This document shows positions 10,226 through 45,414 of a stretch of DNA of 64,000 bases, in pieces. The stretch comes from Dictyostelium discoideum. Its lineage: Eukaryota. The stretch spans positions 1,984,001 to 2,048,000 of the forward strand of contig CM000150.2 in the NCBI GenBank assembly GCA_000004695.1, written 5' to 3'. The translations under genes were made by a program, and so were the position numbers. How positions within the stretch are numbered: the stretch's first letter is position 1; each line of letters begins with the position of its first letter. The notes beneath the pieces were generated by a model. That model saw only the letters and a program-made list of their open reading frames with translations. It ran no database searches and was not told where the DNA came from.

Positions 10226-10284
<59 letters not shown>

Positions 10285-10315
10285 CTTTATTCGATTACAT
10301 AGAAATTGATTAACA

Positions 10316-18001: not shown

Positions 18002-18300
18002 TTTGGAATTTTGAATTGTATTATTACTTTTGATTAAAACATCTTTTTTGTCCAAACTTTTTTCTAAATCTTTTTTTAATTTATCGTCGGCTTCGTGATT
18101 GATGTTGATGACACATTTGAATTGTTTTTTTTTATTTGTGTTTTACCAGGGTCATTTTCGAAGATAATTTCATCAGAAATACCGATTGATGGACTACTTT
18201 CGTCCATTTTATAGTCGTCTATTTTCTTTTGGGTATTACAGTTTTGTTCTATTTCAACCAAATGTTTTTTATTTGTTCCAGAAGCTTGAGACAATGAATT
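17848..18300 (-). mobile_element. 3'-terminal fragment of a minus-strand TRE5-like retroelement: repeat R followed by an oligo(A) tail (seen as T8 on the plus strand).
   Basis: About 270 bp (17856-18125) are ~90% identical to 37490-37680. Both copies are preceded on the plus strand by a T run, i.e. a minus-strand A tail. Both contain the end of an ORF (...INHE(A/P)DDK(L/I)KKDLEKSLDKKDVLIK). Confidence 0.45.
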
Positions 18301-18379
18301 GGCTATCTCACAATGAAGACCAAGTGCGGATAGAATAGTTGAAAAGATATTTTAATGATTCTTATATTTTTTATTAAAA

Positions 18380-18830
18380 TTATTTATTTGTTTTATTTAA
18401 AATAGTTGGTGGTTCAATTTGTTTTTTTCTTGTCCAATTTCATCATTTTCTTTTATCACATCACATAATCTAACAATTTTTCCATTTATATACTGAAGAT
18501 TTGTTAATAATTCGGTTCTTCCATTAAAAAATTTTTTTTGATAAAGTTGGTATATTCACTGAGGCTCATACCCTCCATTCCTTGACCAGAAACCATTTTG
18601 CAATCTTTAAAGTAACCTCTTGAGAATTTATAATGATTAAAAAGGATAATGTCAATTATTTTTACCATTTTTTCTTTACAATCGGCTGTGCACACATTAG
18701 GTTAAAACATTGGAAATTCATTTGGATCGGTTAATAACCATAGGTATTTATTCTTATCTTCCTCAGCTTCTTCAACGGAAAGATGTGGGCACTTATTATT
18801 AGCTCTATCTTTCATTATTTAAGTTGTGAC
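18380..18830 (-). pseudogene. Family A pseudogene (A4), frameshifted.
   Basis: Minus-strand segments YLWLLTDPNEFPMF and MCTADCKEKMVKIIDIILFNHYKF... (in another frame) and ...INGKIVRLCDVIKEND are collinear with the intact family A protein at 25231-25689 (LLDQDEFPKI...CTEECKEKMKEIY...DGKPVRLCELPPGV). Confidence 0.45.
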
Positions 18831-19299
18831 TATAAATATGTTTGTGTGATAATGTTTTATTTAATGCTAGTAAAAAATGTTAAAAAAAAATAATAATGAT
18901 AATTTAATTATTATTTAAAATTAAAAAAAAAAAAAAATAGAAAAAAACTTTTTTTTATGATGTTTTTTTTTGAAAATCAAAAATAAAAAAAACCAACACA
19001 AAAAACAACACCAACAGTTTTTTTCTATTTTTTTTTTACAAAAATAGAGACACAGGGAGTTTTTTTTCTTTTCTGCCATTACTTATTTTTTTAGTTTTTT
19101 TTTTAGAAATGCTAGGGTTACCTTCAAACAATAAAAATATTTATTTAATGTATATTTTTATTTATTTTTTTATTTATTTTTATTTTTTTTTTTGAATATA
19201 TAAATACATTTCTTTTTTTTTCATCAAAATAACAAAAAAAAAAAAAATGAAAAAACTATATAGATTATTATTATTCTAATAATTTTTTTATTATAAACA

Positions 19300-20454
19300 A
19301 AGGGGAGGCATAAATGAGAAGATTGACATCTGCTTTCTATGATCCTCCAGCTTACCCCCATCCTCATACTGGATATCCCATGGGTTTGTTTGCCGGCAAG
19401 AGATAAAGATCAAATTTGTCAAGCACCCGGTATTTATATTTATTTCTCAAATACTCCACGACCTTATCCACCACGATTGGTTTCTCACCCAGTTACACAA
19501 CCTGTTTATTCGATTGGAAAATCAATTAATGATATTAGAAGTAGGGTTAAGGTCCATAGTGAAGATGATTTCCCCCATTTGATTAACACCCTAATGGTTT
19601 GCTAATGAGGTTCCCATGTAATAATGAACGTTCTGATAGTAGACCAAGTTTTTCTGAAGTAGCGTTATTAACAATGTTTGCAACCATTAAAAACTACATT
19701 TTAGGTGTCAAAGATAGTGATATTATAGTTTTTGATGACAATGGAGAACCATTTGATATTTTAAGAACGTTTTATGGAGTTAATAATAATAATCCATTTC
19801 GTACTTCTATTCCTCTCATCCAAGCTAATGGAACTGCTAAATTTGGATTCGATCATATGGTTGATTCCACACTTTAACCATTAGCTCCTCCTTCCATAGA
19901 TGTTATCAATGACACTAAATCAATTTTCCCAATAGGTATTCTATATGAATGTGGAAAACTACTTGATGGAGATTATAGTAATTTTGGTCAAGAAGAATCT
20001 GCCAATGGGGTATGTAACCCATGCAATAGAAAAAAAGAAAGTGAAGAGAAAAAATCAAATCCAATCAAATTCAAAAATCCACCATTATCTTACCGTTTAG
20101 AAATTAGCAATAAGTTTAGTAATTTGGAATATCAAAATGCCAAAGAAAATGGTCTTCTAGGAAAAAGTCTAGTTGAAACAGAAAAGCCATCAAAGCCATC
20201 AAAAGTTGGTCTTTTCACTAGGTTTGGCCGTTGGTAAAGGTCTTTTTGTTCCAGAGAAAAAAAGTAATTCGCTTCCTGGCAAATTCAAAGATAGTAATAT
20301 TGAAATGGTAGAGGTAAATCCTGGAGAGGAACAAATAAGTGAAGCGGCGGGCGTTGAGCATAGTCAAATTAGATATAGAGGCACAAATTACTTTTTTGAA
20401 CTTGGAGAAGCTGCTGAAGAGGCTGCTATGATTATCATATCATATCTTTTTTAA
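19300..20454 (+). pseudogene. Family B locus (B1): several adjacent ORFs in different frames (19339-19605, 19599-19877, 20173-20454).
   Basis: The segment GYP(M/W)...GIYIYFSNTP is shared with the fragment at 31222-31446 (GYPWVC...KHPGIYLIFVNSP). The frame changes around 19380. GC content is locally above the window average. Confidence 0.3.
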
Positions 20455-21130
20455 TTTCTTGCACCTCTTTTACGTGCAAAGTTACCAGGTTTGGGTATAT
20501 ATCATTGAGTTTCTTGTGCAGTTGCATAAGTTCTAATTGGCTCTTGTCTTTCTCTGTTTCTTTGCAATCGTCTTCTTTCACTTTCTTCTTGCATCAACCT
20601 TCTTCTTTCTTCTTGTCCGGCCAATCTTTGTTGTGTTTTTTTAATTTTTTTTAATTTTACCTTTTCAAGATCTGCTTCAATTTCTTTTTTTTGACGGGCA
20701 CCCATCGTTTTTTTTTAAAAAATAAACCTAATGATTTATACTTGGTTATATTTAATAGTTGAGAATTTTTATTTTATGACATTGGTTTTGAATTATTTTT
20801 AAAAAAATCATTTTAAATTTTCTTTGATTCATTACATTTTTATTTCTATCTAATGATTTTATATTAATGATCAATAGAAAATCCAATAGCCACATAGGAA
20901 TTCTATAGAAAATCACTGGGAAATTTTGGTTTGATTACCTTTATAATGGTTATTTTCTAAAGATTTTCTATAGAAAACCATTGGGTAAACAGTTGTTTCT
21001 ATAGGAAATCTTTAGAAAACAATCATTGGAAATCGTTGAATTTTTCCTTTTCTCAATTTTTTAATAGTTTTCTAATGGGTCACATCTATACCGTTATCTA
21101 TTGAAAACCATTCCAACAAAAAAATCTAAT
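20447..21130. repeat. Left arm of a large inverted duplication. The right arm is 24430-25053; arms are ~90% identical and each is about 650 bp.
   Basis: The reverse complement of 24430-25053 matches 20447-21130. This includes the small basic-protein gene and 4-5 internal copies of the motif tctatagaaaa(c/t)ca(t/c)tgg. Confidence 0.75.
20502..20705 (-). CDS. Small basic Arg/Glu-rich protein, arm copy 1 (67 aa), truncated by a premature stop relative to copy 2.
   Basis: MGARQKKEIEADLEKVKLKKIKKTQQRLAGQEERRRLMQEESERRRLQRNRERQEPIRTYATAQETQ then TGA. The paralog at 24794 continues ...AQRYIPKPGNFARKRGARN. The homologous codon here is TGA where the other copy has AGA. Confidence 0.5.
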   Translation of the reverse strand: MGARQKKEIEADLEKVKLKKIKKTQQRLAGQEERRRLMQEESERRRLQRNRERQEPIRTYATAQETQ

Positions 21131-22918
21131 GGATTTCGATAAAGCAATATTAAATTATAAAAAATAAAAAAAAAAAAACAATTCAAATAGATGGTTTCAT
21201 TAAAAGAATATTTTAAAAAAGATTAAGGTTTTTATTTTAAAGAATTTTTATATTGATTTCGTAAAGGAAATCATTAAATGTTTTTAAAAAATGGTTTTGA
21301 ATTAAATGATAGCTAAATATTTCTTTACCAAGCTTCTTCAGCTCAATCTTTAATGAGTTCATAACCTTCTTCTGCAGTGATTCTAATTCCATCACCTACT
21401 TCACGTGTAGTATTGCCGATACCATCACCTACATCATGTGCAGTATCACCCCATGCTCATATCTAGATGCATTATCGGAACTTGGAAAAAAAAAGGATTA
21501 TGAACATGGTTTTGATTTCTCTGTTGAATTAAATGAAGATGGTAGCCTTCCAGATTTTCCAAATACTTTAGATCATTAAAACTGATAAAAAAAAAAAAAA
21601 AAATTAAAAAAAAAAAATAAAGATCATTACATAAACAAAACCAATTAAGGTTTTATTTTTTTTATTTTTATTGTTATCATTTTTTTTTTTAATTTATTGG
21701 AATCAATTTGGTATTCGATTTCAGCAGCAGCAATATATTCTTTTTTGGTATTCATTATTTCATTTTAAAAAAAAAAAATTAATAAAACATTATTAATATT
21801 TTTTTTTTAAAAATAGTTTTTTTTTTTTTTTTGAAATAGAATTAAAAAAAAAATTTAAGGAACTGGGATATTATTAACCATTATTCTTTTAGTACATATT
21901 TTTTTAATGGTGATTTTTTTTCCTCTCAAAAAGGTGCTAGTTAAAAAAAAAAAAAAAATAAAAAAAAAAAAAAGAAAAGCATTGATTAAAAATTTCATTG
22001 CCATAAAAATTAAATTGTCTTAGTTGGCACCTGAGATATTTTTTTTTTTTAAAAAAAAAAATTTTTTGATTGATTGGAAGATATTTTTTTTTTTTCCTTT
22101 TTTTTTTTTGGTAATTATTAGACAACCACAAACTCAAAGAGAGATTTACACAATAATTTATGATATTGCTTGTCCACATATACCAGGTACGGAGAATCCA
22201 AAATCATCTTTTAAATTTATGGACAGGTCCCATCTTCTTTAGGTTTTAATGATGCATAAAGCATTGCAGTACTCTTGTATTTGTCAAAAGATTCTACCAA
22301 ATCGGAGATATATTCGGCCGTGCTGCCATCAGGAATCTCTAAATCAAAAAGTGGTTCATATGTTCTCCAATCATTTAAATCATCTGAGAAATTCATATTC
22401 CGTTGCTTTTTTATGTGAGTTTTACTTGTTTTTTTTTTTCAAATTTTCATTTTATTTTTTTTTTTTATTTTTTTTTTTTCCAAATAAAAAAAATGTTTTT
22501 CGAATTTTTATTTTATTTTATTTTTATTTTTTTTATTTTTTTATTCTTTTATTTTTGTAATGTTGATGAATGATTGAATTAAAAATATAATTTACAAAAT
22601 TTTAATAAACTTATTTTTTTCAAGTTTTATTTTTATTCTTATTTTTATTTTTTATTTTTTAATTTTTTTTTATTTTATTTTTTTTATTTTTATTTTTATT
22701 TTTTTTTTTATTTTTTTATTTATTTTTTTTATTTTATTTTTTTATTTTTTGTAATATTAATGAATAATTGAATTAAAAATAATATACAAAATATAAACTT
22801 ATTTTTTCAAGTTTTTATTTTTATTTTTTTCTTTTTTTCTTTTATTTTTTTTATTTTTTTTTTTTTATTTTTATTATCTTTTTTTATTATTTTATTTTTT
22901 ATTTTTTTTTCCATTTTT

Positions 22919-23847
22919 ATGTATTTTCCTATTTTCTATTTTAAATTTGATATTATGAAATTTTTCCACATTTCTAAATTAATATTATTTTTTTTGTTTA
23001 TTTTTATAAATTTTTGTAAATGTCAACGTTTTGTTGGTACTCTTCCTCCTCAAAGAATAAGTGAAATTGTTAATTTTCAATGGAATAATGATATTATGTT
23101 TATAAACAGAGGTAGAAACAGATGGCCGGATATAGAACCCTTTGATGGAAACGGAGTTTATTTCGTATTTAGGCGAATGTTCAAATCATAATGTTTCTTA
23201 GAAATTTTGAACCTCCTAAGGCTGTTCATATGGAAACTTGGTTTCTTTCTGTTTTTGGATGTCCTTATAATAGCATAATTGAAGGAGGTTTAGGTGTAGC
23301 AGCATCAGGATATGGTGCAGGTGGATGGGTTAACTTCTTTAACACTGCTGATAGACAAGATGTTGTTGACTATATTCTCACCGAGACCCTTACAAGACCT
23401 GCTGACTTTTTAGATCACCCAAATTATCCTCGTGCTCCATCAATCATCAGAAAAATAGATGAATGCGAGCAAAACCTCACAAACTTACAAAACCAAATGG
23501 TGAGCCAGCAAACTAATATTGCGGATCTTCAAACACAAAATACAAACCTACAAACTCAAGTGACTAATCTCCAGAATCAAGTAACAGATCTTCAAAATCA
23601 ACTCCAAACTCATCAAAGTGGAAATAACTTTATGGCTGAGACACTCATTTTGGCACTTCTCAAATACAATGGACCGAGTCTAATTGTTTCAAATCCACTT
23701 CTTCGTGGTTGGTATGAAGCAAGAAAAAATGGTGGTGGTGGTGGTGGCAAGTGTGGTATCGGTGGTGTTGGTGATGGTAAGAATGGTGACGGCAAAAACG
23801 GTGACGGTAAAAACGGTGCGGATGGTGCAGATGGTGCAGATGGTTAG
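22919..23847 (+). CDS. Secreted coiled-coil / Gly-rich protein in the centre of the inverted duplication: two ORFs overlapping by 1 nt (22919..23191 and 23191..23847), a frameshift or pseudogene.
   Basis: A signal peptide MKFFHISKLILFFLFIFINFCKC is present. Heptad-like repeats (TNLQNQ/TDLQNQ) are present. The C-terminus reads GGGGGGKCGIGGVGDGKNGDGKNGDGKNGADGADGADG. The reading frame breaks at 23191. Confidence 0.3.
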
Positions 23848-23913
23848 TTAAAATCTGGCTGTACTTGTCCAGAAACCCCTCCCTGTCCAGTAGTAATTCC
23901 ATGCCCAGAGCCA

Positions 23914-24261
23914 GTGGTTTGTAATATAGCAAAAATTCAAATTCAATTGAATTCAACCATAAAAAGTTTGGATGAATGCAAAAAACAAAAGGACCAAACC
24001 AATGATGACCTCAACGTCTGCAAGTCCCATAAAGATGAGATACAAGATTGGCTCACCGACTGTCAAAAAGAATATGTTAAACAAACAAGTCATTCATCCA
24101 AAGATGATACTCTAATTTCTCTCAGAAACTGCCAAGCCGAATACAGAAAAGAAACATTCAAAAAAGATAAGCTCTGCCGTGGTTTGTCCAAACATATCAT
24201 TGGTTATTTAGATTTCTGTGAAGATAAGGTAGAAAAGCTGAGACTCGCTAATTGTGAATAG
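23914..24261 (+). CDS. Small Cys-containing ORF (115 aa), possibly continuous with the upstream gene.
   Basis: ORF from the track. It has regularly spaced Cys residues, and the frame is open upstream from a GTG (LKSGCTCPETPPCPVVIPCPEPV). Confidence 0.25.
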   Translation: MVCNIAKIQIQLNSTIKSLDECKKQKDQTNDDLNVCKSHKDEIQDWLTDCQKEYVKQTSHSSKDDTLISLRNCQAEYRKETFKKDKLCRGLSKHIIGYLDFCEDKVEKLRLANCE

Positions 24262-24793
24262 TTTTCTCATTTTTTTAAAAAAAAAAAAACAAAAAAAAAA
24301 AAAATCATACAATGATTTCCCTTTATGAAATCAATAAAAAATTCTTTAAATAAAATTTTTAATCTTATTTTAAAAAAATTCTTTTAATGAAATCCATTAT
24401 TTTCATTTTTTATAATTTTATTGAACTTTATTGAAAATAATTAGATATTGTTATTTCCAATGGTTTTAGATTGATAACGGTATAGATGTGACCATTACAT
24501 AGAAAACTATTAAAAATTGAGCCAAAGAAAAATCAACGATTTTTAATGGTTGTTCAAAGATTTCCTATAGAAACCATTATTTACCCTATGATTCTCTATA
24601 GAATTCCTAGCTAATGGATTTTCCAATGACCATTAATATAAAATCATTAGAAAGAAACAAAAATGTAACGAATCAAAGAAAATTTAAAATGATTTTTTTA
24701 AAAATAATTCAAAACCAATGTCATAAAATAAAAATTCTCAATTATTAAATATAAACATGTATAAATCATTAGGTTTATTTTTAAAAAAAAACG

Positions 24794-25048
24794 ATGGGTC
24801 CCCGACAAAAAAAAGAAATTGAAGCAGATCCTGAAACGGTCAAATTAATTAAAATTAAAAAAGCACAACAAAGAATGGCTGAACAAGAAGAAAGAAGAAG
24901 GTTGATGCAAGAAGAAAGTGAAAGAAGACGATTGCAAAGAAACAGAGAAAGACAAGAGCCAATTAGAACTTATGCAACTGCACAAGAAGCTCAAAGATAT
25001 ATACCCAAACCTGGTAACTTTGCACGTAAAAGAGGTGCAAGAAATTAA
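24794..25048 (+). CDS. Small basic Arg/Glu-rich protein, arm copy 2 (84 aa, apparently intact).
   Basis: MGPRQKKEIEADPETVKLIKIKKAQQRMAEQEERRRLMQEESERRRLQRNRERQEPIRTYATAQEAQRYIPKPGNFARKRGARN. Inverted paralog of 20502-20705. Confidence 0.5.
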   Translation: MGPRQKKEIEADPETVKLIKIKKAQQRMAEQEERRRLMQEESERRRLQRNRERQEPIRTYATAQEAQRYIPKPGNFARKRGARN

Positions 25049-25230
25049 AAAAAGAAAAAAATAAAAATAATTAAAAGAAATAAAAAAAAAAAAAAAAATT
25101 AAAAATTAAAAATTTAAAAAAAAAAAAATAAACTAGATCTCTTATATAAGAGTTATAAAAAAAAAAATAAAAGTAAAATAAAATAAAAAAATTTAAAACA
25201 GTTCTTTTTATTTAATTAACACTTTTTTTT

Positions 25231-25689
25231 CTATTCATCTTCTTCAGAATCAGGTAGGTTTTTTGCATCAAAATCACATTGTACACCAGGTGGCAATTCA
25301 CATAATCTAACAGGCTTTCCATCTTTAATACCAACTTTCATTGCTTTTATGACCATTCTAGCATATTCATCTTGGGGAGAGATAGGGGGTGGAGTACTGA
25401 AAAATTCTCGATACATCCAAATATCACATCCTCGAGGATTTTTTCCCAAGTTATATTCAAAAATTCTGCTGTCACTGTAATATTTGTTTATAGTCTCAAT
25501 ATAACGTTCGAATGTTATTCTATAAATCTCCTTCATTTTTTCTTTACATTCCTCTGTGCAGTAACCAGGCTGAATCTTTGGAAACTCATCTTGATCTAGT
25601 AATTCATCAAGGTAAAGAGTGAAATCTTCACTTTTTTTAAGCTTTCTTAAAGAAAATTCATCATGTTGGCAACAATATTTACTTGTCAT
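25231..25689 (-). CDS. Family A protein, intact copy (A1, 152 aa).
   Basis: MTSKYCCQHDEFSLRKLKK...DEFPKIQPGYCTEECKEKMKEIYRITFERYIETINKYY...DGKPVRLCELPPGVQCDFDAKNLPDSEEDE. Paralogs or fragments lie at 18380-18830, 25983-26195 + 30800-31056 and 35079-35411. No recognisable upstream exon. Confidence 0.55.
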   Translation of the reverse strand: MTSKYCCQHDEFSLRKLKKSEDFTLYLDELLDQDEFPKIQPGYCTEECKEKMKEIYRITFERYIETINKYYSDSRIFEYNLGKNPRGCDIWMYREFFSTPPPISPQDEYARMVIKAMKVGIKDGKPVRLCELPPGVQCDFDAKNLPDSEEDE

Positions 25690-25982
25690 TTTTATTTAAA
25701 ATTATACGTTATTAAATAAATAAAAAATAAATTAAAAAAAAAAATGGGTTAAAAATTGAAGTAAAAAAAAAAAAAATGAAAAAAAAATGAAAATAAAAAT
25801 TATTGACTTTTTTCCCACAGAAATGAGAAAAATAAATGAAATAAATAAAGACAAAAATAGAAAAAAAAAAACAAATTTTTTTAAAATGGGTGTAATTTTT
25901 ATATAATTTTTTATTTTTATTAATGGCTAATGGTGCGACAAGGGTAAGGGCTACAGTATGCAGTAATGGTGGCTATTCATCA

Positions 25983-26195
25983 TCACTCTTCTTCTTTTGA
26001 TTCACTTTCTCCTTCTGAATCGGTTAGACCAGTTGTTTCAATTTCTACATCTACACCCCTTGGCACGTCACATAATCTAACTAGTTTACCATTAAGTATT
26101 CCCGCTTTCATAGTTTTTAAAATACTATCACGGTACTCCGGATCAATCTTCTCCTCTTCTAAACAATCATTGTATGTCTGACAGCCAACTGTCAT
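25983..26195 (-). pseudogene. C-terminal half of a family A gene (A2), separated from its N-terminal half by the E1 insertion.
   Basis: MTVGCQTYNDCLEEEKIDPEYRDSILKTMKAGILNGKLVRLCDVPRGVDVEIETTGLTDSEGESESKEEE starts exactly at the element boundary (ATGAC on the minus strand, equal to the GTCAT direct repeat). It aligns to the C-terminal half of A1. Confidence 0.6.
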
Positions 26196-26398
26196 TGTTG
26201 TAGGGAATTTTCCATAAAATTTCACTACAGTAGCGTAGTGAATTTTATTATTTAATTTCACTACAGTAGCGTAGTGAAAAAAAAAAATCACTGACCTTAA
26301 ATTTTTTTTTTTTTCAAAAAACAAATAAAGTTTATTAAATTGAAATTTTATTTTTTGTTTTAATTATTATTTTATTTATTTTTATTATAATTATTGTT

Positions 26399-29031: not shown

Positions 29032-30268
29032 TTAATTACTTACATTATTTTTTTTAATTTCTAGAAAGAGTACAGTATCACCAACTTTCAATCCCTTTGG
29101 TGGTTTTGAATTCCATTGATTTTGGTAACTTGTGAGATTTTCAAGAATAATAGCTGTTCTTTCTTCTTTTGAAACATCTGAAACACCAATTGATTGAGAG
29201 TCTTGTTCTGATTGAACATTAATAAACAAAGGAACAATACCAACAGCTTGAGATGGTGTCATTTTAATTGTTCTTGTTTTTGTATTATTGTAATCATACA
29301 AAGCTTGTTTTAATAGTTCAGAAAGAGACCTAGAAGTACCATCAAGAAAACTAAAATTTATTTATAAATGATTAATTAATAAACATATCGATAATTTATA
29401 TTGTTCACAATATCATACTCTTGTTGTTTTAATTTTGAGATCCTCTCCTTGATAGTTCGATTCAATCTTTCTACCATACCTTGAGTTGTTGGTGTACGAG
29501 GAGCTCCATGTGCTGACTTGGAGCCTGGAAAAAGTTTTAGGAATTCTTTTTGGACTTTGTTTTTAAATTCACGTCCATTATCGCAGTGCCATACTTTCAC
29601 AGGTTTGCCAAAGTACGTGAGAGCCAAAAAATTGTATATGGGAACTGTTCTCTTTGTTGTCAAACATCTAAAAAATAAATGATAATTAAAATAAAAAAAG
29701 AAAACTAATAAATTAATAAATAAAAAATAAATACCTTCCAGTAGCAAATTTTGTAAAAGAATCTATGCATAGAATAATGTAAACAACATCGGTGTCGTAC
29801 GGTTGTACAGAGTCATATTGGATAAGATCATCTAGTTTAGTTAGTATCTTTTCATTATCATCATCGTATGTAACTTTTTCTTTATGTTCACCTTTAATTG
29901 ATGTTAAATCATAAACCAATCTTGAGTATTCCTCGGTATCTACAATTGGAGCAAAATCCTTTGTTATACCTATTAATTTATTTAAATTATTAAAAGAGTT
30001 TTAATATAAAAGTTACAAAACATCATATAAAAATGATTGATACCAAACCTTTTATTCTATTTCGTTGGCAAATGTCACACGTATCTACTGCATCAGATAC
30101 AAAAGAATACAATCCCATATTATAATATTTAGTCTTGTAGTTCCCATAGGTTGCATCTCTTCCTATATGACCTTTATGCATTTCTTCCCAGAGTGATACC
30201 ATTCTATAATCATTAATTACTTCTAAACACACTTCTTTTGATATATTTCTATCTCCGCCACAATTCAT
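29032..30268 (-). mobile_element. Degenerate Ty3/gypsy-type LTR-retrotransposon integrase remnant (Skipper/DGLT-like), fragmented across three or four ORFs.
   Basis: An HHCC zinc-binding motif is present (HKGHIGRDATYGNYK...CDICQRNRIKG). An integrase core is present (KVWHCDNGREFKN...SAHGAPRTPTTQGMVERLNRTIKERI). A C-terminal SH3-like KVGDTVLFLEIKK is present. Stops and frameshifts lie between the pieces. Confidence 0.6.
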
Positions 30269-30522: not shown

Positions 30523-30799
30523 TGTTGGGGAAAAAAAAAAAAAGTTTTGGCGCAAAAAAAAAAAAAAAAATAAAATAAAAAAAAAAAAAAATAAAATAAA
30601 AAAAAAAAAAAATAAAAAAACTTATATAGAACTAATAATCAAATAAAAGATAATAATTTAATAAACTTTATTTGTTTTTTGAAAAAAAAAAAATTTAGGG
30701 TCAGTGATTTTTTTTTTTCACTACGCTACTGTAGTGAAATTAAATAATAAAATTCACTACGCTACTGTAGTGAAATTTTATTGAAAATTCCCTACAACA

Positions 30800-31056
30800 G
30801 TCATTATTGGTGGGTCTGGGAAACTTTTGAATATTTTACAATCATCATAGTAATTATTAACTGCCTTGAGATATCCTTCGAAAGTTATCCTATAAATTTC
30901 TTTCATTTTTTTTTTACATTCTTTTGTACAGAGTCTATTTATCTCAGGGAATCTATCCTGGTCAAATAATTTATCATCGTATAAAAAGGGGCCAAGTTTT
31001 TTAAGGTTTTCTATTGAAAAGCGGTCATGTCCGCATCCACCTACTTTTCTCAACAT
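30800..31056 (-). pseudogene. N-terminal half of family A gene A2. The reading frame runs into the E1 terminal repeat (...PDPPIM then TVVGNFQ, stop).
   Basis: MLRKVGGCGHDRFSIENLKKLGPFLYDDKLFDQDRFPEINRLCTKECKKKMKEIYRITFEGYLKAVNNYYDDCKIFKSFPDPPIM aligns to the A1 N-terminus. It ends at the GTCAT/ATGAC direct repeat. Confidence 0.6.
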
Positions 31057-31221
31057 AATTTGTTGTGTGAAAATAAAAAAAAAAATTAAAAAAATAAATT
31101 AAAAAATAAATTAAAAAAAAATTAAAAAAAATAAATTAAAAAAATAAAAAATAAAATTTAAGTTTTTATTCATCTATAAAAACACAAAAAATTTTGATAA
31201 TATTAATAATTATAATTAAAA

Positions 31222-31446
31222 ATGTTTAACAGACTGTTATATCTATATTTTTTATTAGCTTTATATTTTAACCATATCCATTGCCTGGAAAAATATGCGT
31301 CGAAATTTTACAGACCACCAACAGCAGTACACAGACAAACTGGTTACCCATGGGTTTGTACAAGATATTTGGATGATACTAAAGAAGTGGTACAAAAAGA
31401 ATGCAAACACCCGGGTATATATTTAATTTTTGTAAATTCACCATAG
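31222..31446 (+). pseudogene. Family B fragment (B2, 74 aa ORF).
   Basis: KFYRPPTAVHRQTGYPWVCTRYLDDTKEVVQKECKHPGIYLIFVNSP is similar to the B1 segment at 19339-19450. DNA similarity continues up to the E2 boundary. Confidence 0.35.
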
Positions 31447-31480
31447 TCTACCTCTTTGGTTAATTTGTTCCATACACCTA

Positions 31481-31696
31481 TGTTGTAGGGAATTTTTTTT
31501 GAAATTTCGCTTTCTAAACGGCAGTGAATTTTTACACTAAAATACACTGTTTATGCATGGTGTAAAAATTCACTAAATTTTTTTTTTTTTATAATTAAAT
31601 TAAAAAACAATTTATTTAATCAGAAAAATAAAAAACCAATTTTATTCAGTTATTTGCTTGTTATTTATTTTTTTATAACAAAAAAATTTAGTTTGC

Positions 31697-31754
<58 letters not shown>

Positions 31755-31837
31755 CAATTATTTTTTTCAATTTTTTTTTTTATCGATTGTTTCATTTTTG
31801 GGGAATAAAATAAAATTGTTCGATAAAAAAAAAATTG

Positions 31838-31900
<63 letters not shown>

Positions 31901-32102
31901 GGTTTATATTTTAATTATGGTATTCATTATTGTTTATATAATTATTTTTAGTATTTATATTATTTATAATTATAAACTCGAGTTAATAGAATTATTATTA
32001 TTATTATTATTATTTAAATGTGGGTCAACTATAATTAGTGTCTTAGTTCACTTATTTAATATTAACTTATTTTTGTGTCTTCGTTACATAAAAAAAAAAA
32101 TG

Positions 32103-32134
<32 letters not shown>

Positions 32135-33156
32135 AAAAAAAAAATAAAAAAAAAAAGAAAAATAAAAAAAAAAAGAAAAATAAAAAATAAAAAAAAAAAT
32201 AAAAAAAATAAAAAAAAAATAAAAAAAAAAGAGGGTACCCCCCCCTAAAAAAAATAATAATTTTAATAATAATAATAATAATAATAAAAATGAAAATTAA
32301 TATTTAAATAAAAAAAAGAGGGTACCCCCCTAAAAAATGTTGGAATTTAATTAAATTTATTTTTTATTTTTTTTATTTTTTAATTTTATTTTTTTTATTT
32401 TTTAATTTAAAAAATGTTGATATAAAACAAAAAAATTTTTTCAAAAAAAACATTTCAAATTATTTTTAACAAATTATATTATTATACTTTAATGTATGTG
32501 TACAATTTTAAAAATTTAAAATTTGTTCTATTTTTATCAATCATATCATGTATATTTATTAATTAAATCTCATATATTCTTATTCCCAGCAAATGACATC
32601 AGGTGGAATCGTACAACCAGGCCAAAATCTCTCACAACGTCCAATAAACGGCCAATATGGCTGGGGACCAGCAGCAGGAAGTGCCGCAAATCCACGTGGC
32701 GATCTCCGTGGTTACACTTACAATATTAGATAGTTTCGCTGTCTATTTCTGAATATTCAGAAATCTTTGTTTAATGCCAAAAATAGTAGATATCTATTAT
32801 ATTTTCTCATTTTATAAATCTGATAAGATCTGTCTTAAATAAAAAAAATCAAATTTTTTTATAAATTAAAAAAAATCATTTCCGCAAATCCGCAAAAAAT
32901 AGCGGGAATTAAATTATTTATTGTTTTTTAAATTGTTTTTTTTGCGTGATATGAAATGAACAGCAAATGAACAACGTGTGAGTTGTATTAGCTGATGGTA
33001 ATATTTATTTATTTTTGTTTAATTAAAAAATTTTTTATAAAATAAAAAAAAAAAAAAATTTTAGTGAATTTTTACACTACGCATAAACAGTGTATTTTAG
33101 TGTAAAAATTCACTGCCGTTTAGAAAGCGAAATTTCAAAAAAAATTCCCTACAACA
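31481..33156. mobile_element. E2: 1.7-kb element with ~97-bp terminal inverted repeats sharing the terminal 16 bp (tgttgtagggaatttt) with E1. Flanked by a 6-bp direct repeat CACCTA. The interior is non-coding.
   Basis: 31481-31577 is the reverse complement of 33061-33156 with one 3-nt difference. Each arm contains a 15-bp-stem hairpin (agtgaatttttacac...gtgtaaaaattcact). CACCTA lies at 31475-31480 and 33157-33162. The interior has poly(A/T) tracts and two GAGGGTACCCCCC boxes (32231, 32318). Confidence 0.55.
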
Positions 33157-33584
33157 CACCTATCTATGGGTGGTATGACTTTTAATATGGTTACTTCAGC
33201 ATTTTCGAAATTAATATTTGAAATCATTTGATAGTAAAACGTTAGACAATTTGAATAGGTTTGATTGTTTATGATTTTCAAAACCGATGTATCAAAGTAA
33301 ACAATATCATACTCTGACGATGACAAAGCATTACATAAATCATTAGCTTCCACAGCCAATAGGTATTTTTGTAAAGTTTCAAACTGATCATTAGCAAATG
33401 GAAACTTTGAGTACATATCCTTTAGGAGAGCATTAGCTACAGTGGAATCAGTAGGTTCACCGAAAAATCCAACCTTTTGACCAATAAGGATTTCTTTTCT
33501 TTCATATGACTCTTTAATTCTATTTAAAATTGTTGTTTTTCCAGAACCAATTGGACCTGTAGTAATTTTAATCTTAGGAGGCAT
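33135..33584 (-). CDS. P-loop NTPase, deoxynucleoside/nucleotide kinase-like ORF (149 aa). Its 3' end runs into the E2 terminal repeat, so it is likely interrupted.
   Basis: A Walker A motif ITTGPIGSGKTTILNRIKE is followed by GFFGEPTDS, resembling the dNK EGNIGSGKTT...EP pattern. The last 6 codons (VVGNFF) are encoded by the E2 TIR. Confidence 0.35.
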   Translation of the reverse strand: MPPKIKITTGPIGSGKTTILNRIKESYERKEILIGQKVGFFGEPTDSTVANALLKDMYSKFPFANDQFETLQKYLLAVEANDLCNALSSSEYDIVYFDTSVLKIINNQTYSNCLTFYYQMISNINFENAEVTILKVIPPIDRCVVGNFF

Positions 33585-33891
33585 TTTTTTTTTTCTTTTT
33601 TATTTATTTTTAGATATTATCTTGTTTTATTTTTTTTAAAAAAAAATAATAATTTATATCCATTTTTAAAAAAAACAAAAAAGCTTCCATGGTGTTCTTT
33701 TTTTTAAAAAAAGAATTCTATTAAAGAATAGTTATAAAAATAAAAAAAAAAAAAAAATAAGGGAAGAAAAAAAAAAAATCTTGGTTTTGATTTTCAAAAA
33801 AAAAAAAAAAAAAAAAAAAAAATTAAAAATTATAAAAAAAAAAAAAAAAAATATCTTCTTTTTTTTTAAAAAAAAAAAATAAAGAATAAAA

Positions 33892-34811
33892 ATGAACATT
33901 CATGTAAAATCAGTTTGTATTGATAATGGCATCATAATTTTTAAAAAACAAGATCAGGCATTTAATTATATGAATAGTGTCAGCTCTATTGAAAAATATT
34001 TTATATTTTCATATGAATTTGGCGATAAAGGTCAACGTGCTTTTTTAGTATCTCCAAGTATTGAAAAACTCTTCAAATGTATAATGAATACACCATTGAA
34101 TCTTCGTCATTATTATGAATTGATTCCACAATTTGAAAATTGTAATTTGTATTTAGATATTGATTTTAAGTTATCACCCGAGAAAGCAGAAGAAAATAAA
34201 AGAAACAAACAACTTTATAAAAACAATCTTATCGATAGAATTATAATCGACGAAGTAAAACCCATCCAAAGAAAACACATCCACAGGTCTCTGATGAAAT
34301 CGATAGCATTGAACCATTATTGCTCTTCTCCTATCAATACGATAAATATTCTTTACATTTACATTGGCCATTGAAAACCTTCCATTGGAAAGACAATGAA
34401 CATCTTGGAGAATGGGTAAAACAATTTGTTATTGAAAGATCCATCTATATACCAGAGCTCAACTATATCGATACGTCAGTTTATTCAAAATTCAGAAATT
34501 TTCGTCTAATGGGAAATAAAAAATTCAGTAAGAGTATTGAAACAATACTTAGAACAACATCTAAAGATAAAACCCTTGAAACCTTTGAAAAAACTATAAT
34601 AACATCATCGAATTTTCAAAAACAAAACGATACTGGTATCGATGAGAAAATCCTTTCATCTAATGGTTTCGAATCTTTAAAGAATACTGGTAGATCAACA
34701 GTTGATGTTAAGAGGAATCAACACCAACGAATTTCTTGTAATGATTTGATTTCATTGGAAGGTATGGGTCTCTCATTGGACGAATGTAATGATATTATAT
34801 TTTGTTTTTAA
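33892..34811 (+). pseudogene. Archaeo-eukaryotic primase (AEP) superfamily primase-like gene with one frameshift (ORFs 33892..34374 and 34320..34811 overlap).
   Basis: Motif I is hhhDhD (CNLYLDIDFK), preceded by FIFSYEFGDKGQRAFLV. Motif II is sxH (YSLHLHWP). Motif III is DTSVYSKFRNFRLMGNKKFSK. The order and spacing match p48/viral-type DxD AEP primases. The frame shifts between motifs I and II. Confidence 0.5.
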
Positions 34812-35078
34812 TTTTTATAGAAGATTTTTTCAATTAAAATTCTATAAAAATAAAAAACAAAATAAAAAAAATAAATTTTATAAAAAAAAAAAAATGTTTG
34901 AAAATATAAAATCATTAATCTTCTCAGCAGTTTCTTTATTATTCTCTTTTTTGTATTATCATAGTGATTCAATTATATCTTTATTCACTCAAAATCTTGG
35001 TGAGGCAGTTTTGGAAACAATAGACGAAGTAATTCATAAACCCCAAACCTCATTACAACAAGAATCATTAAAATTACA

Positions 35079-35411
35079 ATGTACATGCAAACCATTATAA
35101 AACAATCGAAAAGTATCGATGAAGATTTGGTACAAGGAACTAAAAAATGGGAAGAAGTAAGAGAGAAGTATTCTTTTACTGGAAGTAGATTAGCTGCTGC
35201 CATTGGAATTGATCCATACACTTCACAACATGATTTATTTCATTTTTTATATACAATTGTTGGAATGTGCATTCATGATAAATATAATTTTGAAGATTTG
35301 TTCCAAAGAGTAGGCAGTGGCACATCATTTGCTGTTATCGAAGAATTCATGAGGGGTGATCTTTTTCCTGATATCAAAAATGGATGTAGTGAAGAATGTA
35401 AAAAAAAATGA
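35079..35411 (+). CDS. Family A-related ORF (A3, 110 aa) with an N-terminal YqaJ-like exonuclease motif, C-terminally truncated.
   Basis: QGTKKWEEVREKYSFTGSRLAAAIGIDPYTSQHDLFHFL fits the N-terminal motif of YqaJ/lambda-exonuclease-like nucleases (W..R...TAS..aai.G..P..s...L). It is followed by CIHDKYNFEDL...DLFPDIKNGCSEECKKK, which aligns with the family A N-terminus (CCQHDEFSL...DEFPKIQPGYCTEECKEK). Confidence 0.35.
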   Translation: MYMQTIIKQSKSIDEDLVQGTKKWEEVREKYSFTGSRLAAAIGIDPYTSQHDLFHFLYTIVGMCIHDKYNFEDLFQRVGSGTSFAVIEEFMRGDLFPDIKNGCSEECKKK

Positions 35412-37469
35412 TACAATATACACAGGCCGTGTTTAAAAACTATATGAACTCTGTATGTTGGTACATAATGATGTTAATATACCAAAAAAGTTTGATGATA
35501 ATGGGCCCTCGTGCTTTTCAAATTATATCCATTCTTTGGTAGGTGGTTTCAAGGAAGAAAACTCTTGTTATTTCAACTATACGCCACGTCTCGAAAATAA
35601 TAGTAGTAAATTTCCAGATTATCCAAAAGAAAATTCTCAATAAAAATAAAAAGTTTATAATTTTTTTATTTATTTTGTTAATTTTTGTTTTTATTTTAAA
35701 TAAATAAATAATTTTAATAAATAATAATTAAAAAAAAAAAAATCATTGAAATCTAGTTGTAATTTTTATTTTATTTTATTTTTTTCTTTAAATTATTTTT
35801 CTTTAATCATTTTTATTTTGAATAATGATCTGAGACTACACGGGAAAAAAACCTAGTAAAATGTTAAAATATAATTAATTAAATTAAATTTTAATAAAAG
35901 TTTGTAATGCTATTTATAAATTAATAAAAATTATTAAAAAATAAGATTGATAGTTGCAAAAAAATAAAAAAAATAAAATTTATAAAAAAAAGAAACTTAT
36001 TATAAAAAAAAAATAGCATTTTTTATTAAAATTTAATTAATACTATAAAATAAGAAAATATATTAGAATTTTTAAATTTTATTAATTCGGGGTTATTTTT
36101 TTTTTTTAAAAATAATTATAATAATTATTAGAAAATAGGATATTTTATAAAAAAATAAGATTATTTATAAAAAATGTAACCTTTATTATTTTTTAATAAA
36201 ATATATTTAAAAAATAAGATAAATAATAATAAAAAAAAAATAATAAAATATATTAAAAATTGAAACATTATATAATTTTTAACATATTTTATTAAAATGT
36301 AATAAATACTAAAAAAATGAGATATTATATAAGAAGGTTATAAATTTTATTAATTATGGTTTTAATAATAAGATGTTTAAAAAATAATAATATAAATTAT
36401 AAATTGGAAAATTTTATAATATTCAACATATTTTATTAAATATAAGTAAAAAATAAGATAAAAAATAAATTTTATAAAAAAAAAAAATATATATATATTA
36501 AATGAAACTTTTTATTATTTTAAAAAATATAGGAATTGAATTAATAAAAATAAGATATTATAAGAATAAATATGCGAAAACAAGAAAAATTTTATTAATT
36601 TTGAATTTGGTTTTTTTTTTATTTTTTTATTTTTTTTTTTTTTTTATCCATTTTCAAACTAAATCTGAATCGATTGTTTTTTTTTTTTTTTTTTTTTTTT
36701 TATCTGGATAAAAGTTGTTTGTATTTATTTAAAAAATTATTTGATTTTACTTTTTTTTTTTTTTTTTCATATTTTTTTTTTTTCATCATTTTTTTTTCAT
36801 TTTTTTTTCACCTTTTTTTTTACCAAAGTAAGTAAATTTTCATTATTTGTTTGAATAAAATCAGTAAACTAATTATTAAATTAGAATAAATAAAATTGAT
36901 GAAACAACTTATAAAAAAAAAAATAAAAATAATAAAAAAAAAAAAATAAAAAAAATTTAGAAAAATTAAAAAATATGTTTATTTTAAATATTCTTTATAT
37001 AGTATAATGTTTTAATTAATATCTTTTGGTATTATATGTCAACACATTTCATAGTATAAAATGAAAAAGAAAATTTATTTTCAGTTTTATTATCTTATTA
37101 CTCACAAATATAAATATGTTATAAATTAAATAAATATATAAATATATATTAATTAAAAGAAATAGATATTTAATTAAATTATATATAATTAAATAGAAAT
37201 AAAAATTAAATTGGTTATTCAAAAAATAAATAAAAAAAAATAGAATATAATAAAAAATAATTCTTTTAAGTCCTTCTATAGTATACCACTTCCTTTGCAT
37301 ATTTAAAACAAATAACCTCTTTAAAATTAAAATTCATATATTGAAATTCTTAAATTGTAATTTTAAATATTTGTTTAATGGATAACCGTAATAAATCTAT
37401 TTTCTATTAATTTTTAATTATTCTTTCAAAAAATAAAAAATTATAATTTTTTTATATTTTTTTTTTCAA

Positions 37470-39311: not shown

Positions 39312-39385
39312 GGGACTATAGTTTAGTTGGATATAACGACCGGCTACGAACCGGTAGGTCTCAGGTTCGACCCCTGATGGTCTCG
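39312..39385 (+). tRNA. tRNA-Arg (anticodon ACG).
   Basis: The acceptor GGGACTA/TGGTCTC has two G-U pairs. The anticodon stem ACCGG/CCGGT has loop CTACGAA (U33, anticodon ACG, A37). The variable loop is AGGTC. The T arm is TCAGG-TTCGACC-CCTGA. The discriminator is G. Confidence 0.75.
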
Positions 39386-42276: not shown

Positions 42277-43584
42277 TTAAATTTTATTATATTTAAATAA
42301 ATATTTAACAATATCAGAATAAATTTTAATATATGCATCTGTACCCCAAGTAAAATCAATATGATTAAAGTTTATAATGTTTTTAGAAAATATTAAATTT
42401 TGTTTTAATTGAGCTATTAACCAATTATTATCTTCTTTAGTTGATAGTATCATTACCACCAGTGAAAAGAAATGTTGGTATTGTTTTTGAAAAGTTTGTA
42501 ATATTATATTTTGGTGGTGTTGATTGAGAATAATGAATGAAATTTTCATGTGATGAACCATAATCAAATTTTTGAAAACCTTTCTTAAAATTTTGAGACC
42601 AATGAATCATATTTTTTGTTGATGTTCCACCTGGTGATTGTGATAAAATTATTGGTAATCTAGTTTGATTTAAATTTGAACTGAAATCACCATCATCACC
42701 ATCATCACTGCCGAAAAGTAATCTTAATGAAGTTGTACATGCAAATGGTGTAATACTACAAACCGATGGTAATAGCAATACCCTTAGTGGTTGTATGTCC
42801 ATTGGAAATGATTTTATACCAACTAAATTAACAATTTCACCAATACTTAATTGGGAAATTAAATTTAATAATACACTTTTACAATGTGTTACTCTTGTTA
42901 CTGGTGCCAATGCAAAAAATGTGTTTATCTTTTTCGTTAATTCACTACCTTCTTTAAATCCAATGAATCCCATTGTTGTACCTTGACTATGACCAATATA
43001 ATTCACTTTATCATTTCCAGTTACATTAATAACATAATCAACTACACAAGGTAAATCGAATTCACTCATTTCATCAAATGTAAAATTCCAATATTCTACA
43101 TCATTAACATTATATTTCAAATGTTTATTACTATATCTAGTACCTCTAACATTACTAATCCAAACATCATATCCTTCATCTGCTAGAATAAATCCTAAAC
43201 TTTGATAATCATTCTCTTGAATTACCCAAGTTGTACCAATATCTTCTAAACCATGTTGTAATATAACTGATGCTTTTAACTTTTTATTATTATTTATTAT
43301 TTTTTTACCATTTGGTATACGCTGAAGTGATATCTTTATAATTTTAAAAAGTTATTATTAGTATGAATACAAAATTTAAAAAATAAATTATTAAAAATTC
43401 TTACAATATAACCATCTTTTGTAGTGGCAAAATGATTTTCTACAGGATAACCATGTTTTTGAATAAATTGTGAAATATTTAAATTAAAATCTGGATCAAA
43501 TAGTGTATTTATTTCTGATTGAACAAAATTAAATAAAGTTGATAATATTAAAAAAAAAAATAAAATTAATATTTTTTTTTTCAT
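42277..43584 (-). pseudogene. Acid lipase family paralog L1 (gastric/lysosomal acid lipase-like alpha/beta hydrolase) with a 2-nt deletion near the C-terminus. Gene is join(43584..43405, 43333..42277).
   Basis: It has a signal peptide, an Abhydro_lipase N-terminal motif (GYPVENHFATTKDGYI) and a GHSQG nucleophile elbow. It is 75-80% identical to L2 at the protein level. Near 42440-42480, gatactatcaactaaagaag replaces the L2 sequence gatttaatttcaacaaaagaag. Two overlapping track ORFs (42437..43120 and 42277..42567) confirm the frame change. Confidence 0.55.
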
Positions 43585-43895
43585 TTTTAAATTATATATA
43601 TATATATTATAATATATATATAGTTTTAAAAAAATATAAAAAAAATTATAATACAATTGTCTTATAATTTTATAAAAAAAAAAAAAAGAAAAAAAAAAAA
43701 AAAGATTACCTTTAATGTAAAAAATTATCAACTTGTAAAAATATAAATTTATAATCTATTTATTTTTTTAAAATCTATTAATAATTAATCTAATCACATT
43801 TTACTAATTATAAACATTGAATTAATCTAAAAATATTATGATATTTATAAAAATCTTTTACCCTTTTTTGAAAAAAAAAAATAAAAATAAAATTG

Positions 43896-43929
<34 letters not shown>

Positions 43930-44101
43930 TAAAAAAAAAAATAATAAAATTAAAAAAAGAATAAAAAAAACTTTTGTTTAACTTAAATCATTCTTTGAAA
44001 AAAAAAAAAAAAAAAACATTTTACAATTTGTTTAAAGACTTTATGAGATAAATCTTTAAATAAATTATTATTTAATTTTTTTTTTATTTTATTTTAAAAA
44101 A

Positions 44102-45414
44102 TTAATTATATTTTAATAAATATTTTAAAATATCAGAATAAACTTGTTTATAAGCATCATTACCCCAAACGAAATCAAGATGACTATATGAATCAATATG
44201 TTTATAATAAATTAAATTTTTTAATTGTGGAAGTAACCAATTGTAATCTTCTTTTGTTGAAATTAAATCTTTACCACCAGTGAAAATTATTGTTGGTATT
44301 TTTTTTGAAAAATTTGTAATATTATATTTGGGTGGTGTTGATTGAGAATAATGAATGAAATTTTCATATGATGAACCATAATCAAATTTTTGAAATTCAT
44401 TATTTAAATTTTGACTCCAATGGATAATATTTTTTGTTGATGTTCCACCTGGTGATTGTGATAAAATTACTGGTAATCTAGTTTCATTTAAATTTGAATT
44501 TTCACCCCACCCAGTAATGAAACCTAAGGATGTTGTACATGCAATTGGTGTAATACTACATAATGTTGGTGCTAAAAATCCTCTTAAAATCGGTGAATCC
44601 ATTAAAAATGATTTTACTCCAAAAAATTTTAAAATCAATCCAAATCTTAAATTACCTAAAAAATTAAATAATGGACTTTGACAATGTGTAACTCTTGCAA
44701 CTGGTGCCAATGCAAAAAATGTGTTTATCTTTTTCGTTAATTCACTACCATCTTTAAATCCAATGAATCCCATTGTTGTGCCTTGGCTATGACCAATATA
44801 ATTCACTTTACTATTACCAGTTACATTTATAATATAATCAACCATTGAAGGTAAATCGAATTCACCCATTTCATTAAATGTAAAATCCCAATATTCATCA
44901 TCATTTACTGTATATTCCAAATGTTTATTACTATATATAGTACCTCTAACATTACCAATCCAAACGTCATATCCTTCATCTGCTAAAATAAATCCTAAAC
45001 TTTGATACCTATTCTCTTGGAAAACCCAAGTTGTACCAATATCTTCTAAACCATGTTGTAATAAAACTGTTGGTTTTATCTTTGTATTATTATTATTATT
45101 ATTATTATTAAATATTCCTTTATTTTTATTTATACCATTTGGTATACGTTGAAGTGATATCTAATAAATATTAAAATATTAATTAATTTATAAATAAAAT
45201 AGAATTTCTATTATTAACCTCTTACAATATAACCATCTTTTGTAGTTACGAAATGATTTTCAACAGGATATCCTTGTTTTGCAATCAATTGTGAAATGTT
45301 TAATTTAAAATCTGGGTCAAATAATATATCCTCTATTGATTGAGTAACATTACAACTTATTAAAATTGTTACTAATATTATTATTATATATTCTATGGTT
45401 AATATATTTTTCAT
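44102..45414 (-). CDS. Acid lipase family protein L2 (415 aa). CDS is join(45414..45226, 45160..44102).
   Basis: MKNILTIEYIIIILVTILISC signal peptide. ...GYPVENHFVTTKDGYI ends exon 1 at a GTAAGA donor. Exon 2 has HGLEDIGTTWV, GHSQGTTMGFIGF and SHLDFVWG. Phases check (189+1059 nt). Confidence 0.65.

Follow-up and report, generated by a model that had tools for sequence, protein, structure and literature searches.

A dead and rearranged replication-gene cluster in Dictyostelium discoideum, probably derived from an endogenous virus related to Mriyaviricetes

Remnants of three replication genes

The stretch of DNA analysed here (the window) comprises 64,000 nucleotides of the forward strand of Dictyostelium discoideum contig CM000150.2 (assembly GCA_000004695.1, positions 1,984,001 to 2,048,000); its composition is about 22% G+C, with long A/T runs, an actin-like open reading frame (ORF) and tRNA genes. 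At 33135-35643 it contains remnants of a deoxynucleoside kinase gene (minus strand), a PrimPol-type gene of the archaeo-eukaryotic primase (AEP) superfamily (plus strand) and the start of a YqaJ-type exonuclease gene (plus strand). The original prediction, made from the letters alone, had recognised this trio as kinase-like, AEP primase-like and YqaJ-like ORFs, all short or disrupted; each is present in that interval, and the lesions in all three could be mapped base by base against intact copies. Matches obtained with the window ORFs alone are marginal, and the question was settled by the existence of longer, intact versions, which occur in the same gene order in multi-copy units of about 40 kb (the element). 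Seven overlapping viral loci of 21 kb each (L001-L007) serve as references for the window. Compared with the replication module of L001, L002 and L004, the match of the window is confined to L002 ~9205-11597, at 95-99% DNA identity. None of the module's genes could yield a full protein from the window copy, which is therefore dead.

The primase is represented by two ORFs, 33892-34374 and 34320-34811 (plus strand), which belong to a single gene interrupted by the loss of 1 bp at 34257 (GAAGT-AAAACC, against GAAGTGAAAACC in the intact gene). The earlier reading of a frameshifted primase with all three catalytic motifs in order is borne out: LYLDIDF is followed by SLHLH and IDTSVYSKFRNFRLMGNKKF, in two reading frames. 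These represent AEP motifs I (DxD/E), II (SxH) and III (hD...RNFR, here IDTSVYSKFRNFRL), at alignment columns that are invariant or nearly so across 36 homologues. Joined across the frameshift, the window primase is 96% identical to an intact 398-residue protein (P0001) from Dictyostelium cf. discoideum, which represents 14 member sequences and has relatives in D. dimigraforme and D. discoideum. The pseudogene spans 33892-34797 (plus strand) and keeps motifs I-III; its UL52-type zinc finger and stop codon are deleted, and a 22-bp filler (34798-34819) stands in place of some 270 bp of the intact element (L002 10908-11179). Since the C-terminal zinc finger is deleted, the window copy is a pseudogene of the PrimPol/UL52 clade rather than a working member of it.

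Assignment of the intact protein to the AEP superfamily rests on sequence and fold matches to structures in the PDB, whilst in Pfam P0001 had no hit of its own. By sequence, P0001 matches human PrimPol at E=1.5e-12. Its AlphaFold2 model (predicted local distance difference test score, pLDDT, of 78.8) likewise has human PrimPol as top fold match (E=4e-15, target-normalised template modelling score 0.70-0.74), followed by poxvirus D5/E5, herpes simplex virus (HSV) UL52 and African swine fever virus (ASFV) PrimPol; within a library of viral structures, the primases of pithovirus, ASFV and mimivirus rank first. Distant homologues of P0001 number 356 at E<=0.001 and their consensus is the PrimPol signature; with distant homologues included, a profile reaches 3e-81, and Pfam Herpes_UL52 is matched by 27 of the 36 sequences in the alignment. 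The zinc finger of the intact protein, C-x6-H-x19-C-x4-C (C336, H343, C363 and C368), occupies columns conserved in the alignment. The primase is accordingly a PrimPol/UL52-clade enzyme of the AEP superfamily. The possibility raised in the original prediction that the ORF is simply a fragment of the host small primase subunit (PriS) gene is rejected, as the protein belongs to the PrimPol/UL52 clade and its nearest relatives outside the element are about 30% identical.

The kinase ORF at 33135-33584 (minus strand) encodes 149 residues, starts MPPKIKITTGPIGSGKTT and contains the Walker A motif GPIGSGKTT; taken alone, it reaches the Pfam dNK family at E=0.0056 and 16.9 bits, below the cut-off, and all its other Pfam hits are also sub-threshold. 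Its DNA is 95-97% identical to an intact gene of L001, L002 and L004, the 263-residue product of which matches dNK (PF01712) at E=2.5e-11 (44.2 bits, the cut-off being 27) with the P-loop present; a sequence search of the PDB with this intact kinase gave no match. The N-terminal ~142 codons remain in the window (33157-33584, minus strand), with a 36-bp in-frame deletion at 33280, and the C-terminal ~110 codons are gone. The original prediction requires correction here, in that the last seven codons of the ORF derive from a transposon and not from the kinase gene. This is a non-autonomous terminal inverted repeat (TIR) transposon of 1.68 kb (31481-33156), lying inside the kinase gene and flanked on both sides by a 6-bp target duplication, CACCTA. 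Its 153-nt arms (31481-31633 and 33004-33156) are 87% complementary, have an exact 37-mer in common (0 expected) and each contain a hairpin. The transposon severed a 34-bp piece of the kinase gene (31447-31480, minus strand; L002 ~9205-9238), beyond which the rest of the gene has been lost at a junction with a stub of a secreted-protein gene. None of the seven viral loci compared contains this transposon, which is not part of the virus.

Kinase and primase genes diverge from an A/T-rich intergenic region (33585-33891) that is collinear with L002 9697-10000 and presumably served as a shared promoter region for both. Between primase and exonuclease lies a conserved ORF for a small membrane protein of 68 residues (34895-35100, plus strand), which the original prediction did not mention; it is kept upstream of the YqaJ gene, and overlapping it, in intact elements and in a divergent contig (L008) described below.

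For the exonuclease, the ORF at 35079-35411 (plus strand) passes the Pfam YqaJ cut-off (PF09588; E=7.9e-5, 23.4 bits against 22) over the first 33 positions of the profile. The intact protein matches at E=4.4e-37 over positions 1-150 and finds in the PDB a bacterial exonuclease (3SYY, E=8.7e-13) and mimivirus R354 (4e-5). On intact copies, Pfam supports both the YqaJ and the dNK assignments, and the outcomes that the original prediction had named as refuting it did not materialise. The window retains the first ~53-55 codons (35079-35237, plus strand), with 98-99% DNA identity to L002 up to 11597; as only profile positions 1-33 remain, it lacks the catalytic core.

Joined in frame to this stub is a copy of the small gene family termed family A (35234-35686, plus strand), with its own ATG at ~35265. 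It is 97.6% identical to L006 4460-4914, an intact gene for a 126-residue product, and carries two 1-bp deletions, one in an A-run at ~35401-35410 and one at ~35452. The fusion is a deletion or recombination junction at 35234-35237 at which the 5' leader and ATG of family A were retained. Descent of the family A genes from the nuclease gene, as the original prediction had suggested, is rejected: family A is a viral gene in its own right, present in multiple copies and beginning at a start codon of its own, and its copies lie about 25 kb from YqaJ in the unit.

Intact copies and their relatives

On one contig of 2.98 Mb, P0001 lies in two places between the 263-residue kinase gene, on the opposite strand, and the YqaJ gene; downstream of this module are a GRF zinc-ribbon gene and a gene for an 848-residue D5-like superfamily 3 (SF3) helicase (DUF5906/VapE, Pfam E=3.2e-15). 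L001 and L002 are 99.7% identical over 15 kb, gene order is identical across L001-L004, and both Dictyostelium cf. discoideum and D. dimigraforme have intact multi-copy units. Walking outward with helicase and capsid homologues gave access to the remaining parts of the element. Because one contig carries the L002 and L004 kinase genes in like orientation at a distance of 39.66 kb, and because the overlap chain from L004 through L006 (reversed) to L001 closes a circle of ~40.4 kb, the unit appears to be about 40 kb long and arranged head to tail or circularly permuted. Part of the spread between these estimates is attributable to a tandem-repeat array (L005 14132-14581; L006 15340-16414), the length of which differs between copies.

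Adjoining the intact modules, the gene order of which is that of the window, are genes for a candidate capsid protein, a packaging ATPase and a homologue of VLTF3 (viral late transcription factor 3), in agreement with the earlier proposal of an integrated viral relic with co-travelling replication genes. The packaging ATPase candidate (310-365 residues) matches Pfam Pox_A32 at E=3.3e-7 (30.5 bits, cut-off 22.8). The capsid candidate (400-414 residues) matches Capsid_N at E=3.5e-5 (23.9 bits, cut-off 24), and its typical C-terminal capsid motif aligned to MCPv3 of PBCV-1 at E=0.08-0.5. The VLTF3 homologue reaches Pox_VLTF3 at E=1.7e-5 in both members tested, with 25.0 bits at a cut-off of 25. 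A RuvC-like protein without a Pfam hit has as best PDB match the resolvase Ydc2 (1KCF, E=0.12), over the catalytic N-terminus. A further conserved protein of 177-187 residues, found in Dictyostelium and Acytostelium, shows by eye the HUH-like motifs FxLTxNT, HSH and YIxK. The unit also carries a 7-kb block of small paralogous genes, including family A and paralogues of a secreted protein. Pfam searches of 20 further element proteins gave nothing useful, and in the unit's gene models Pfam revealed neither a DNA nor an RNA polymerase, and no rve integrase or adenain protease. TIRs were not seen at the level of the unit, the ends of which are not delimited.

The order kinase-primase-exonuclease is found again, at protein identities of 22-42%, in two other sequences, a scaffold of Acytostelium and an unrelated assembled contig. 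The latter (L008; Logan, run ERR13950607), a 12.6-kb, intron-free contig of 35% GC, bears the closest distant PrimPol homologue, in the order kinase (minus strand), PrimPol (plus), small ORF, YqaJ (plus) and GRF, together with a VLTF3 homologue (43% identity) and homologues of three more element proteins. The next-closest PrimPol homologue lies on scaffold DF837621.1 (L071; 25.8 kb, 44% GC) of Acytostelium subglobosum LB1 (GCA_000787575.2), which has the kinase (minus), PrimPol-YqaJ (plus), a RuvC-like gene and eight more homologues, with at least 14 element proteins matched in all; the ATPase is 53% identical, and the capsid protein 37% identical over its full length (E=5e-88). This scaffold may be a near-complete related viral genome, unrecognised in a public assembly of 2015. 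Conservation of gene order in these two sequences indicates that the trio is a conserved module of a dictyostelid-associated virus lineage. D. discoideum AX4 also carries debris of the virus, seen there as fragments only. One of these is DDB_G0277467 (P0164), annotated as hypothetical, a chimera in which the first ~170 residues correspond, at 85% identity, to the C-terminal half of the capsid protein.

These relatives bear on the explanation that the cluster consists of decayed host genes (a host PrimPol, a nucleoside kinase and a nuclease) with no viral connection. PrimPol is indeed a cellular eukaryotic family, and the named distant homologues of P0001 include cellular PrimPols of Anaeramoeba and Guillardia. 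However, the nearest homologues outside the element are about 30% identical, whilst the window is 96% identical to copies adjoining capsid and packaging genes, and the gene order recurs both in the intron-free contig of 35% GC and, beside a capsid gene, in Acytostelium. A host PrimPol fragment is rejected on the same identities, and we regard a host origin of the cluster as having a negligible chance of being correct.

Homologues were also found in marine metagenomes, on contigs several of which are catalogued as gamadviruses ("Gamadviridae", within the scope of Mriyaviricetes). A metagenome scan with the YqaJ alignment yielded 62 loci, 29 of which also encode an ATPase 37-39% identical to that of the element (tblastn ~1e-42, phmmer 2e-50). 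VLTF3 ORFs of gamadviruses match the element VLTF3 at 1e-8 to 1e-10 (phmmer), and a gamadvirus RuvC family matches the RuvC-like protein (phmmer 2.7e-6, hhalign 93%); element proteins of 443 residues (hhalign 93%), 260 residues (hhalign 92%) and 126 residues are also matched in the metagenome loci. In all, seven element proteins have detectable homologues in the marine contigs, and of six contig names tested against the supplement to PMC11253617, five figure there as gamadviruses. No relatives were returned by scans of IMG/VR with the capsid protein and with the VLTF3 alignment, or by a metagenome scan with VLTF3, and none of the capsid, HUH-like, helicase, 230-residue, PrimPol and kinase proteins reached 40% when aligned by hhalign with 48 gamadvirus ORF families.

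Origin of the cluster and of the surrounding debris

Taken together, these data make it very probable that the region represents 2.4 kb, dead and rearranged, of the replication module of a double-stranded DNA virus endogenous to dictyostelids, about 40 kb in size and related to Mriyaviricetes. The original prediction had considered an old remnant of a virus-like or Polinton-like element. Given that the fragment is 95-99% identical to intact copies, the description as old is doubtful.

The Polinton part of that proposal requires closer consideration. Polintons (Mavericks) and Polinton-like viruses are 15-40 kb in length, encode capsid proteins and integrate as transposons. The element resembles them in being integrated, of suitable size and multi-copy in a protist genome, and in encoding a putative capsid protein of double-jelly-roll type and an A32-type ATPase; the weak hhalign match of this protein to the gamadvirus capsid family leaves room for such an affinity. 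Moreover, Polinton-like elements have been reported in other dictyostelids, namely D. fasciculatum and Polysphondylium (PMC3671162). Unlike Polintons, however, the element has no protein-primed PolB, rve integrase or adenain protease detectable by Pfam in the whole unit, shows no unit-level TIRs and does contain a VLTF3 homologue, and its ATPase, VLTF3, RuvC-like and three other proteins match catalogued gamadvirus contigs, the nearest relatives found. A Polinton relic is therefore improbable.

An inserted fragment of the genome of a large nucleocytoplasmic large DNA virus (NCLDV), comparable to the giant endogenous viral elements known from algae and from Acanthamoeba, would account for hallmark genes of NCLDV type and for a PrimPol fold that is nearest, amongst viral proteins, to the primases of pithovirus, ASFV and mimivirus; YqaJ nucleases and deoxynucleoside kinases are, in addition, common in NCLDVs. 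Against this, the overlap chain closes the repeat unit at ~40 kb and its copies appear to follow one another head to tail, Pfam turned up none of the core genes of large viruses in it (DNA and RNA polymerases and capping enzyme included), and the Acytostelium relative has the same compact gene set on a scaffold of 25.8 kb. We consider this explanation highly unlikely, less probable even than a Polinton origin.

Several observations weigh against the preferred assignment to a small virus related to Mriyaviricetes. The Pfam score of the capsid candidate is 0.1 bit below the cut-off, it aligns weakly with the capsid family of gamadviruses (hhalign 39.6%, E=3e-4) and its single-sequence AlphaFold2 model, at pLDDT 30, is unusable. 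The 177-187-residue HUH-like protein matches neither Pfam nor any gamadvirus family, and against the PDB it gave no match as a single sequence and chance-level, unrelated hits as a profile. The element proteins include no candidate for VLTF2, for which no dedicated test was made, and the PrimPol and kinase have no counterpart in the gamadvirus loci. The lack of polymerases and integrase refers to Pfam searches of gene models, many of them without annotation, and the head-to-tail layout and the size of 40 kb were pieced together from 21-kb loci that overlap, rather than from a single continuous sequence. Finally, the viral lineage is known here from its genes alone.

The gene content suggests how an intact virus of this kind might replicate. 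PrimPol would prime DNA synthesis whilst the SF3 helicase would unwind the template and, as no viral polymerase was found, we propose that a host polymerase copies the viral genome. The kinase could support deoxynucleoside triphosphate salvage, the exonuclease and resolvase would process recombination intermediates or concatemers, and the ATPase would package DNA into icosahedral capsids.

A wider proposal is advanced tentatively, and we hold it to be somewhat less than evenly balanced: that dictyostelids carry a hitherto undescribed virus lineage close to Mriyaviricetes, made up of small relatives of giant viruses that encode capsids and recently or currently active, which is present in chromosomes as multi-copy, head-to-tail arrays of near-identical ~40-kb genomes and has its own PrimPol, SF3 helicase, YqaJ and kinase module with no viral polymerase. 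To our knowledge, isolation of a natural Dictyostelium virus has yet to be achieved, and in the literature we found no report of the element or of such a virus; if the proposal is true, Dictyostelium as a model would gain its first natural virus system. Intact copies in wild Dictyostelium genomes (99.7% alike, with capsid and packaging genes), together with the Acytostelium relatives, could provide a genetically tractable host for mriyavirus-like viruses, which are so far mostly metagenomic and have been proposed to resemble the ancestor of giant viruses. The unusual combination of a stand-alone PrimPol, a helicase and an exonuclease, with no viral polymerase found, bears on how such viruses might recruit host polymerases. 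For annotation, orphan families (family A and the secreted-protein paralogues) and AX4 orphans such as DDB_G0277467 are explained as viral debris. The window copy itself is functionless; its value lies in the lead it gives to a virus lineage of social amoebae that is apparently undescribed and may still be active.

Further debris lies upstream of the cluster. The interval 18146-26324 is a patchwork of pieces of the multigene-family region (80-93% identity by blastn to L001, L005, L006 and L007), within which are fragments of a secreted-protein gene (23191-24261, plus strand), a family A gene (25231-25689, minus strand) and a family A C-terminal piece (25983-26324, minus strand). Nearer the cluster are a family A gene copy with upstream DNA (30778-31156, minus strand, including the ORF 30778-31056; 92% identical to L006 151-514) and a 74-residue N-terminal stub of the element's secreted-protein paralogue (31222-31446, plus strand), which ends at the junction with the kinase gene and the likeness of which to a 436-residue protein of L005 was judged by eye. 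The segments at ~18.1-26.3 kb and 30.8-31.4 kb thus also come from the element's multigene block, and the window from ~18.1 to 35.8 kb is a scrambled, dead patchwork of pieces of one virus mixed with transposons. A 152-residue family A product of the window is recorded in assembly GCA_054883475.1 (contig JBTAPE010000039.1, near 2.97 Mb).

The secreted-protein paralogues form a family of 400-490 residues in the multigene block, with N-termini resembling signal peptides and a GVY...YIG-like motif that recalls GIY-YIG nucleases; members or fragments lie at 23191-24261 and 31222-31446 of the window, at L001 2638-4101, at L005 331-1661 and 3475-4674, and at L006 2661-4033. Pfam returned no hit for the two paralogues searched. 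The element also encodes a 164-residue Cys/His-rich protein. Between the viral fragments of the window, an integrase-like stretch at 29376-29747 (minus strand; HGAPRTPTTQGMVERLNRTIKE) is, by eye, probably the remnant of a long terminal repeat (LTR) retrotransposon. Copies of the element are themselves broken by, or adjoin, host transposons at L003 4847-7023, L005 16861-19235 and L007 17438-21116, comprising a DDE_Tnp_1/4 transposase gene, an LTR retrotransposon (RVT, RNase H and integrase) and a DIRS-like element (RVT and tyrosine recombinase), and the viral arrays appear to be located in transposon-rich chromosome regions.

Elsewhere in the window are tRNA-Thr(AGT) genes at 11560-11631 and 13247-13318, beside which ORFs at ~11.8-15.6 kb look like a putative tRNA-targeted retrotransposon, and a tRNA-Arg(ACG) gene at 39312-39385. 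Three paralogous lipase-like ORFs with the motif GHSQGTT (42437-44920 and 58815-59171) resemble, by eye, a tandemly duplicated host family.

Comparison with known systems

Motifs I-III, the fold and the zinc finger place the intact primase with the clade of eukaryotic PrimPol and the primases of NCLDVs and herpesviruses (human PrimPol 5L2X, HSV UL52, poxvirus D5 and ASFV C962R/F1055L). Motif I is DxD in the element primase and DxE in human PrimPol. Within this clade the element primase differs in being virus-encoded, of only 398 residues and without a fused helicase, and the window copy differs further in being frameshifted and devoid of the zinc finger.

The closest overall parallel is with Mriyaviricetes/"Gamadviridae", which comprise the Pleurochrysis endemic viruses and their marine metagenomic relatives (Yutin et al. 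2024, PMC11253617). Genomes of Mriyaviricetes are 35-45 kb and encode a capsid protein, ATPase, VLTF2, VLTF3, RuvC, a PD-(D/E)XK nuclease and helicases, with no polymerases; an HUH endonuclease is stated to be present in all mriyaviruses, and VLTF3 is treated as diagnostic of Nucleocytoviricota (PMC11253617). The dictyostelid element agrees with the greater part of this genome description. A size of ~40 kb is common to gamadviruses and the element, as are, for the element putatively, an NCLDV-type major capsid protein and, further, an A32 ATPase, VLTF3, a RuvC-like resolvase, a PD-(D/E)XK (YqaJ-like) nuclease and an SF3 helicase, and in both no DNA or RNA polymerase has been found (for the element, by Pfam). 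In contrast to the gamadvirus loci, the element encodes a deoxynucleoside kinase as well as a PrimPol that stands alone and bears a UL52-type zinc finger; it also differs in having dictyostelid hosts, in being integrated in chromosomes in multiple copies, apparently head to tail, and in a capsid protein too divergent for a confident match, with a putative HUH protein and no VLTF2 candidate. In view of the weak capsid match, an HUH protein recognised by motifs only, the lack of a VLTF2 candidate and the lack of gamadvirus counterparts of PrimPol and kinase, we call the element mriyavirus-like and not a member of Mriyaviricetes.

Endogenous precedents have been outlined in a preprint that reports Mriyaviricetes-related regions in glaucophyte and pavlovophyte genomes (bioRxiv 10.1101/2025.04.19.649669), the main text of which names no dictyostelid or amoebozoan case. 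As described there, these regions resemble the element in consisting of integrated mriyavirus-like DNA with a composition like that of the host.

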